Assembly: GCF_044324875.1 (NCBI RefSeq)
Contig: NZ_CP172185.1
Origin: Escherichia coli
GTDB lineage: Bacteria; Pseudomonadota; Gammaproteobacteria; Enterobacterales; Enterobacteriaceae
Direction: 5' to 3' (one strand)
DNA length: 64,000 bases
The position numbers were made by a program, and so were the translations under genes. This document shows, in pieces, positions 16,882 to 16,989 of the stretch. The notes under the pieces are model-generated. The model made no database searches. It had not been told where the DNA came from and saw only the letters and a program-made list of their open reading frames with translations. Positions within the stretch are counted from its first letter, which is position 1, and every line of letters begins with the position of its first letter.

Positions 16882-16989
16882 ATGACGCTCGCAGAACTGG
16901 GCATGGCCTTCTGGCATGATTTAGCGGCTCCGGTCATTGCTGGCATTCTTGCCAGTCTGATCGTGAACTCGCTGAATAAGCGGAAGTAA
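16882..16989 (+). CDS. ldr: Ldr type I toxin peptide, copy 4, variant (M26L, W30S)
   Basis: MTLAELGMAFWHDLAAPVIAGILASLIVNSLNKRK. Confidence 0.7.
   Translation: MTLAELGMAFWHDLAAPVIAGILASLIVNSLNKRK

Follow-up and report, generated by a model that had tools for sequence, protein, structure and literature searches.

A lineage-specific LdrD allele without the signature tryptophan in the bcsG-adjoining unit of a four-copy Escherichia coli LDR-D array

The LDR-D locus of Escherichia coli was analysed in a 64,000-nucleotide stretch of DNA (RefSeq assembly GCF_044324875.1, contig NZ_CP172185.1), referred to here as the window. The locus occupies positions 15224-17075, intergenic between the transporter gene yhjV (13686-14957, reverse strand; identified by its open reading frame (ORF), the collinear annotation of NZ_AP022298.1 and synteny with K-12) and bcsG (17076-18755, reverse strand; identified by its ORF and annotation). 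Repeat searching and alignment resolve it into four long direct repeat units on the forward strand, arranged head to tail, recurring at exactly 483 bp and 93-96% identical, each with a 108-nt ldr gene, a 66-nt antisense rdl gene and an 11-bp intrinsic terminator. These can be recognised as the well-known ldr/rdl type I toxin-antitoxin system, here in the form of a four-copy array. The first three ldr coding sequences (CDS; 15433-15540, 15916-16023 and 16399-16506, forward strand) translate to the canonical peptide WP_001295224.1 with Met26 and Trp30, while copy 4 (16882-16989, forward strand), which adjoins bcsG, encodes a 35-residue LdrD allele, MTLAELGMAFWHDLAAPVIAGILASLIVNSLNKRK, identical to WP_000170736.1 and assigned from its ORF, its Pfam match and the LdrD structure 5LBJ. 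All four peptides are full-length matches to the Pfam family Ldr_toxin, at 83-93 bits. It is copy 4, in which a serine stands in place of the tryptophan otherwise conserved in the family, that is considered here.

The number of LDR-D units differs between strains. With the 108-nt CDS as query, and copy number taken as the number of places matched per genome, LdrD-type genes number from 1 to 6 in 5,404 complete genomes, the median being three, so that K-12 with its single LDR-D copy is the unusual case among E. coli. The 4,711 genomes that cover at least 80% of a query of several units were unusable for copy number, since one subject unit aligns to several query units.

The copy 4 CDS runs from the ATG at 16882-16884 to the TAA at 16987-16989, its 108 nucleotides giving 35 amino acids and a stop codon. 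On translation, copies 1-3 give MTLAELGMAFWHDLAAPVIAGILASMIVNWLNKRK, with the C-terminal end ASMIVNWLNKRK, and copy 4 ends in ASLIVNSLNKRK. In this C-terminal segment copy 4 differs from copies 1-3 by a synonymous AGC to AGT change in the codon for Ser25 (16956), by ATG to CTG at 16957, giving M26L, and by TGG to TCG at 16970, giving W30S; both amino acid differences, and the limits of the gene, had been given exactly in an earlier sequence-only reading of this DNA, as translation and alignment confirm. Over the whole unit, copy 4 differs from its array neighbours at 19-21 of 387 positions (about 5%) and within the CDS at 3-5 of 108, so that the CDS is not unusually diverged and its divergence is not beyond chance expectation.

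A highly conserved tryptophan between the transmembrane helix and the charged C-terminus is the signature of the Ldr/Fst superfamily (Fozo et al, 2010, PMC2887945). In copies 1-3 this is Trp30, and in copy 4 the corresponding residues are Ser30-Leu31. Among the other aligned ldrD-type genes, 21 in number and drawn from Escherichia, Salmonella and Citrobacter, codon 30 is TGG throughout. When a single genome of each bacterial species was scanned with a degenerate DNA pattern for the motif FWHDLAAP, 47 intact Ldr peptides were recovered, their genera being Escherichia, Salmonella, Citrobacter, Kluyvera and Pseudocitrobacter, and 42 of them have tryptophan at position 30; the other five all carry Trp31, so that a tryptophan at one or other position is found in 47 of 47. 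Copy 4 scores 83.4 bits against Ldr_toxin (PF13940) over residues 1-35 of 35, compared with 93.2 for the canonical peptide and a cut-off of 27, with W30S alone costing 6.9 bits and M26L 2.5 bits. The proposal in the sequence-only reading that loss of the tryptophan could matter is, in principle, well founded on these counts. Other features of the family are present. The P/D/S/TxxxG motif of the transmembrane segment, which is essential in Fst and Lpt (PMC7472228), takes the form P17-V-I-A-G21 in all four copies, PxxxG being found in 45 of the 47 family members, and the charged C-terminus Lys33-Arg34-Lys35 is kept in copy 4. Because the tryptophan is absent, family membership of copy 4 rests on its 91-94% identity to characterised LdrD and not on the tryptophan motif.

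The two amino acid differences do not have the same history. At position 26 the 47 Ldr peptides have Leu in 23, Ala in 18, Met in 4 and Val in 2. The order yhjV-ldr-bcsG is kept in Escherichia sp. E1V33, E. whittamii, another Escherichia species (L006) and Salmonella arizonae/diarizonae, and in E. albertii synteny could be checked at the bcsG flank only. Every bcsG-adjoining copy from these outgroups, E. albertii included, has Leu26 (CTG or TTG) together with Trp30 (TGG), and the intermediate haplotype, AGT-CTG followed by TGG, persists within E. coli in unit 1 of ATCC 25922. The outgroup copies and this haplotype show Leu26 to be ancestral and Met26 derived. The CTG of codon 26 (16957-16959, forward strand) is thus the older state, with the ATG of copies 1-3 derived, and to describe M26L as a substitution in copy 4 reverses its polarity. 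By contrast the TCG of codon 30 (16969-16971, forward strand) is, from the family comparison and the literature, a derived loss of the signature tryptophan, the codon being TGG everywhere else. On these comparisons only W30S is evolutionarily new in copy 4.

Copy 4 shares with K-12 ldrD a set of markers of the last copy, namely the AGT codon for Ser25, the sequence CATGC following the stop codon and, within the rdl region, GGCTAATC. Over 387 nt (16689-17075 in the window and 4182-4568 in the E1V33 locus, L038) it is 96.6% identical to the last unit of E1V33, as against 94.6-95.1% to its own array neighbours; between the same two genomes the 3′ end of bcsG is only 88% identical. Since copy 4 is nearer to the last unit of E1V33 than to its neighbours, the tandem copies would seem to be old and not in the course of being homogenised. 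The markers indicate that copy 4 is the positional orthologue of K-12 ldrD and not a new paralogue, and the earlier suggestion of a diverging paralogue gives way to that of a lineage-specific allele of the bcsG-adjoining unit.

The Ser30 allele is common. A 55-nt variant probe, by design without a seed in canonical copies, found it in 337 of 5,426 complete E. coli genomes (about 6%), in exactly one place in each, with 316 of these identical. The 108-nt CDS of copy 4 is present in identical form or with at most one mismatch in 313 complete genomes, and in an exact-sequence cluster look-up of a collection of 15 billion proteins the peptide WP_000170736.1 occurred in at least 1,000 contigs. In all six loci that were read (the window, BEC1-S17, 042, ST648, FDAARGOS_1268 and N96; locus labels L001, L047, L048, L053 and L054) the Ser30 unit adjoins bcsG, in arrays that range from one copy in ST648 (L047) to five in strain 042 (L048). 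In K-12, ATCC 25922, O103:H2, O157:H7 and A37 the unit adjoining bcsG encodes Met26 and Trp30. The bcsG genes of Ser30 strains lie 0-17 nt apart within their group and 18-27 nt from others, out of 1,680 nt. This tight grouping fits a single origin of Ser30 followed by vertical inheritance, and on the same evidence the allele appears fixed in one clade of bcsG haplotypes. Its carriers include strains 042, IAI39, SMS-3-5, CE10 and ST648. Literature on ldrD searched together with bcsG, phylogroup or 'conserved tryptophan' gave no description of the W30S allele; the peptide is already in RefSeq annotation and abundant in public data, and the system and locus are known.

The canonical peptide of copies 1-3 belongs to the same array and architecture as copy 4 and is identical to it at 33 of 35 residues, with Met26 derived and Trp30 ancestral. 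It is found anywhere in the array, with several copies to a genome, in contrast to the Ser30 form, which is single-copy and terminal. In strains of phylogroups B2, B1 and E the canonical peptide is that of the last copy. Closer still is the Leu26/Trp30 allele, which is identical to copy 4 at 34 of 35 residues; WP_000170738.1, which is of this type, and the bcsG-adjoining outgroup copies have the AGT-CTG haplotype and the 3′ untranslated region (UTR) of copy 4, but have TGG at codon 30. The Leu26/Trp30 allele is the probable ancestor of copy 4.

Of the characterised systems the nearest is K-12 LdrD/RdlD (ldrD b4453, rdlD b4454; nuclear magnetic resonance structure PDB 5LBJ; Kawano et al, 2002), which lies at the same yhjV-bcsG locus and also encodes 35 residues. 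Its toxin, the closest with a solved structure, is identical to copy 4 at 32 of 35 positions, the differences being F3L, M26L and W30S. Both have a 66-nt antisense Rdl on the 5′ leader and the same terminator, while K-12 has one LDR-D unit compared with four in the window, the 5′ tail of its Rdl differs from that of copy 4, and toxicity and repression by RdlD have been demonstrated for the K-12 form and not for that of copy 4. Two more distant systems are instructive. Fst from pAD1, a plasmid found in Enterococcus faecalis, is the prototype of the Fst/Ldr superfamily and, like the copy 4 peptide, is a small membrane toxin that spans the membrane once, has PxxxG and charged residues at its C-terminus and lacks the signature tryptophan; it differs in having hydrophobic valine and not polar serine at that site, in its Gram-positive host and in an antitoxin RNA that pairs with the 3′ end and not the 5′ leader, and no sequence similarity between the two was detectable at the level used. 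The Ibs/Sib pairs of E. coli resemble LDR-D in having tandem copies in one intergenic region and cis-antisense RNAs with short variable regions. Sib RNAs are described as discriminating cognate targets via short recognition regions (PMC2943612), which parallel the hypervariable 5′ tail of Rdl described below. Ibs is a different toxin family from Ldr, and Sib, unlike Rdl, overlaps the whole ORF.

The antitoxin genes are all on the reverse strand, at 15319-15384, 15802-15867, 16285-16350 and 16768-16833 for copies 1 to 4, and match the Rfam family RF01813 with 81.7, 81.8, 78.3 and 90.4 bits, respectively. The rdl of copy 4, which matches over the full length of 1-66, has the best score and also the most stable fold of the four (-31.7 kcal/mol). 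It lies opposite the part of the ldr leader found 49-114 nt upstream of the start codon, clear of both the ribosome-binding site and the ORF. Substitutions in the Rdl regions of copies 3 and 4 had been pointed out in the sequence-only reading; this was correct as far as it went, but no two of the four Rdl RNAs are alike: 2 nt separate copies 1 and 2 and 5-8 nt every other pair, with most of the changes falling in the 18 nt at the 5′ end. These 5′ tails (15367-15384, 15850-15867, 16333-16350 and 16816-16833, reverse strand) are a diversity hotspot, with a nucleotide diversity (pi) of 0.18 compared with 0.03 in the CDS among 24 distinct E. coli LDR-D units, and are so across species too. Cognate tail duplexes are predicted at -27 to -30 kcal/mol and non-cognate ones at -6 to -27 kcal/mol, the closest non-cognate pair being Rdl1 with the target of copy 2. 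This suggests copy-specific antitoxin recognition by Rdl, as in Sib/Ibs.

The remaining signals of unit 4 can be placed around these genes. A candidate -10 element of the ldr promoter, TAGAAT, is at 16684-16689 on the forward strand (TAGAAT or TAAAAT in all units), from which transcription would start at about 16695-16698. On the reverse strand, a candidate rdl promoter at 16840-16868, with the -10 element TATTCT (16845-16840) and the -35 element TTGTAA (16868-16863) separated by a 17-nt spacer, is identical in the four units, with the Rdl 5′ end 7 nt downstream of it. By alignment the Shine-Dalgarno region on the forward strand is GAGGCGG (16871-16877), compared with CAGGCGG in copies 1 and 2 and TGGCGG in copy 3, and would be, if anything, stronger in copy 4 than in the others. 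A terminator scan places the intrinsic terminator of the ldr messenger RNA (mRNA), with an 11-bp stem followed by a T run, at 17039-17071, forward strand. With Rdl, ribosome-binding site, terminator, PxxxG motif and KRK tail all present, unit 4 appears undamaged, and the module should work like any other ldr/rdl unit.

A consensus fold was derived from 22 ldrD-type mRNAs of three genera (Escherichia, Salmonella and Citrobacter), with unit 4 represented by 16689-17075. In this fold the 3′ UTR is the partner of three regions, namely the Shine-Dalgarno sequence (191-195 with 328-332, in alignment columns), the region of the start codon (202-209 with 317-324) and the 5′ end (32-37 with 345-350). 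Compensatory change is seen at 13 pairs. The predicted mRNA would be of a closed design resembling those of hok and AapA1, in agreement with the published view that regulation of ldr/rdl is hok/sok-like, possibly via a leader ORF, ldrX (PMC4147584; PMC8594479). The double-stranded RNA of ldrD and rdlD is cut by RNase III in vivo (PMC7373196); PMC12133099 and PMC11264685 contained nothing on ldr regulation. The ldr leader has a 25-codon ORF, MLRGLNPWWHWLLERENPRTLQVCT, at 16724-16801 and at the equivalent positions of all four units, with Phe for Cys in unit 3, which overlaps the 3′ half of rdl. In C. sedlakii and C. amalonaticus its start codon reads ACG in place of ATG, which makes the ORF a doubtful candidate for ldrX.

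Taken together, we consider copy 4 to be the bcsG-adjoining LDR-D unit with an inherited, lineage-specific LdrD allele, in which Leu26 has been kept, Ser30 is new and the module is intact, with a probability of about 0.8. The copy at the edge of the array would have kept Leu26 while the inner copies acquired Met26, and Ser30 would have arisen once, by the single change of TGG to TCG, on the Leu26/Trp30 background. Its site is within the last repeat, in the 3′ half, which would be anchored by the unique flanking DNA. Unequal crossing-over may add or remove inner units, but should be able neither to remove the right half of the last unit nor to copy Ser30 inwards. Such an edge position would account for Ser30 being single-copy, always terminal and kept in arrays of one copy; the allele is never at an inner position, the probe finding one place per genome, and is present in the one-copy array of ST648. 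The single-copy arrays of K-12 and ST648 resemble unit 1 in their left part and the last unit in their right part, a composition that would result from collapse by unequal crossing-over. Since edge position suffices, the persistence of Ser30 is not evidence of selection.

At the level of function, the ribosome-binding site and start codon of the ldr mRNA, of about 380 nt, would be paired with its own 3′ UTR, and the 66-nt Rdl, transcribed opposite the leader, would block translation indirectly. The 35-residue peptide would form a single-pass helix in the inner membrane with its KRK tail in the cytoplasm, and Ser30 would take away the aromatic side chain that one expects where the membrane meets the cytoplasm. 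Going from Leu26/Trp30 to Leu26/Ser30, between about 2.0 (interface) and 2.6 kcal/mol (octanol) of membrane partitioning is lost on the Wimley-White scales, and one may reasonably expect weaker interfacial anchoring on the cytoplasmic side. Fst of pAD1 with Val at the tryptophan position is still fully toxic, and the tryptophan 'is not essential for function' (Weaver, PMC7472228), although the valine is hydrophobic and the serine of copy 4 is not. Toxicity has been shown for K-12 LdrD/RdlD and LdrA only (PMC8309996, PMC4147584), and no mutagenesis of LdrD has been published (PMC8309996). It would seem fairly likely, from its sequence, that the Ser30 peptide inserts into the membrane and is toxic on over-production; the chances of its being somewhat less potent than the Trp30 form look about even. 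In LdrA, a tag at the N-terminus does away with toxicity.

The possibility that Ser30 is an error of sequencing or assembly, which tandem 483-bp repeats do invite, can be set aside as negligible: the variant is identical in 316 independent complete genomes, with its CDS in 313 and one probe match in each of 337, units 2-4 are identical to those of NZ_AP022298.1, and the peptide has its own RefSeq accession and its contigs. Selection acting on the RNA, in which the nucleotide changes tune the fold of the ldr mRNA through a hairpin in the CDS or the 5′-3′ closure and the amino acid changes are by-products, is very improbable. In the single-sequence minimum free energy fold of copy 4, C16970 does gain a pair with G16926, and unit 4 is slightly more stable than the others (-189.4 compared with -181 to -185 kcal/mol). 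In the consensus fold, however, the two non-synonymous sites, at column 288 (second position of codon 30) and column 275 (first position of codon 26), are unpaired bulges, which makes a cause at the RNA level unlikely; no partner position co-varies with either site, and the CATGC difference in the 3′ UTR is common to last copies with Trp30 such as that of K-12. Relaxed constraint is harder to dismiss, but still unlikely. A redundant last copy, with three canonical copies upstream of it in the window, could have lost its signature residue to a mildly or strongly inactivating change that drifted to fixation in one lineage, and be on its way to a pseudogene, and further non-synonymous sub-alleles have been gained on the Ser30 background. 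Against this the CDS, seen with at most one mismatch in 313 genomes, has no frameshift or stop, the regulatory parts are all intact, with Rdl-4 the best-scoring of the four, and in one-copy arrays such as that of ST648 the Ser30 gene is the sole LdrD-type gene and yet is intact. With divergence within the clade of at most 1%, visible decay would not be expected.

A selected divergence in function, in which W30S was favoured for attenuating or re-targeting the toxin, perhaps tuned together with its own Rdl and a stronger Shine-Dalgarno sequence, carries the suggestion of the sequence-only reading further and is a tentative alternative that we think has roughly one chance in four. The residue changed is the most conserved of the C-terminal segment, as the tryptophan counts, the TGG codons and the Pfam cost all indicate. 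Between the ATG and the terminator, the last unit of A37 differs from copy 4 at two non-synonymous nucleotides only, with no silent change. The allele has existed long enough to give rise to sub-alleles, of which L23F with Ser30 is in 955 contigs, Ser30 with R34W (ending NSLNKWK) in 82 and Met26 with Ser30 in 21 (loci L054 and L053, both at 2440-2547, the former with R34W). R34W puts a tryptophan four residues downstream of position 30, restoring one near the tail, and that it is compensatory for the lost tryptophan is speculation. Other losses of Trp30 are rare, W30C being in 11 contigs against at least 1,000 for Ser30, and the 5′ tail of the copy 4 Rdl is distinct from the others. Set against these points, the differences in the Ser30 clade, about four non-synonymous and two synonymous, are far too few for a test of selection by the ratio of non-synonymous to synonymous rates (dN/dS), and the position at the array edge fully explains persistence. 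The AGAGG form of the Shine-Dalgarno sequence and similar Rdl tails also occur in Trp30 units, pAD1 Fst is toxic without the tryptophan, and deletion of any Fst/Ldr system is without known phenotype (both PMC7472228). The A37 pattern, the rarity of W30C and the sub-alleles fit selection or drift alike. The stronger form of the proposal, that Ser30 is a selected attenuation or re-targeting of LdrD kept at the edge since the split of phylogroups D and F, with R34W compensating, is quite unlikely; if true, the series L26/W30, L26/S30 and L26/S30/W34 would be a natural experiment on the Ldr/Fst signature tryptophan.

Several points weigh against reading copy 4 as an inherited allele in an intact module. 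Expression and toxicity of the allele are predictions from sequence, and the argument from edge retention, in explaining persistence without selection, is silent on function. The terminal position was read directly in six loci only. A sigma-70 consensus scan of 15000-17150 returned no promoter, the promoters and transcription start given above having been placed by eye. The non-synonymous Ser30 sub-alleles (L23F, R34W and M26) could equally indicate relaxed constraint. Strains 042, IAI39, SMS-3-5, CE10 and ST648 belong to phylogroups D and F, although a search of papers gave no explicit phylogroup for the reference strains.

Some further observations concern the array and its surroundings. NZ_AP022298.1 is the closest complete genome, and all 19 nucleotide differences from it in 14900-17200 of the window fall within 15138-15670 (unit 1), with no base changed in units 2-4 or in either flank. 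In the window, unit 1 has an Rdl tail like that of unit 2, whereas unit 1 of NZ_AP022298.1 has one like that of unit 3 and encodes a peptide with R34Q, and the differences look like a patch of gene conversion or recombination. In the array of E. coli O103:H2 (L050, 934-1968) a transposase pseudogene ('integrase core domain') sits between ldr units, and the unit to its right lacks the leader and rdl region. A 503-bp contig labelled Bacillus sp. EB106-08-02-XG196 (L046) has an E. coli-type ldrD encoding MPFAELGMAFWHDL...NWLNKRK, which, judged by its sequence, is almost certainly contamination of that assembly. Elsewhere in the window are the RNA genes GadY (150 bits), the small RNA ES205 (105 bits) and a transfer RNA, at 51966-52079, 57859-57930 and 5885-5958, which are ordinary for that chromosomal region.

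As the system, the locus and the exact peptide are already publicly annotated, the value of the allele as a discovery is small. In practical terms, K-12 with one LDR-D copy is atypical of a species with a median of three LdrD-type genes per genome. More generally, the array illustrates how the edge repeat of a tandem array may keep ancestral states and how lineage-specific mutations at the edge may be retained by position alone, so that retention there is not to be read as selection. For the Ldr/Fst superfamily, copy 4 represents a common natural allele without the residue used to define it, and the W30, S30 and S30/W34 alleles would offer a cheap first structure-function comparison for LdrD.

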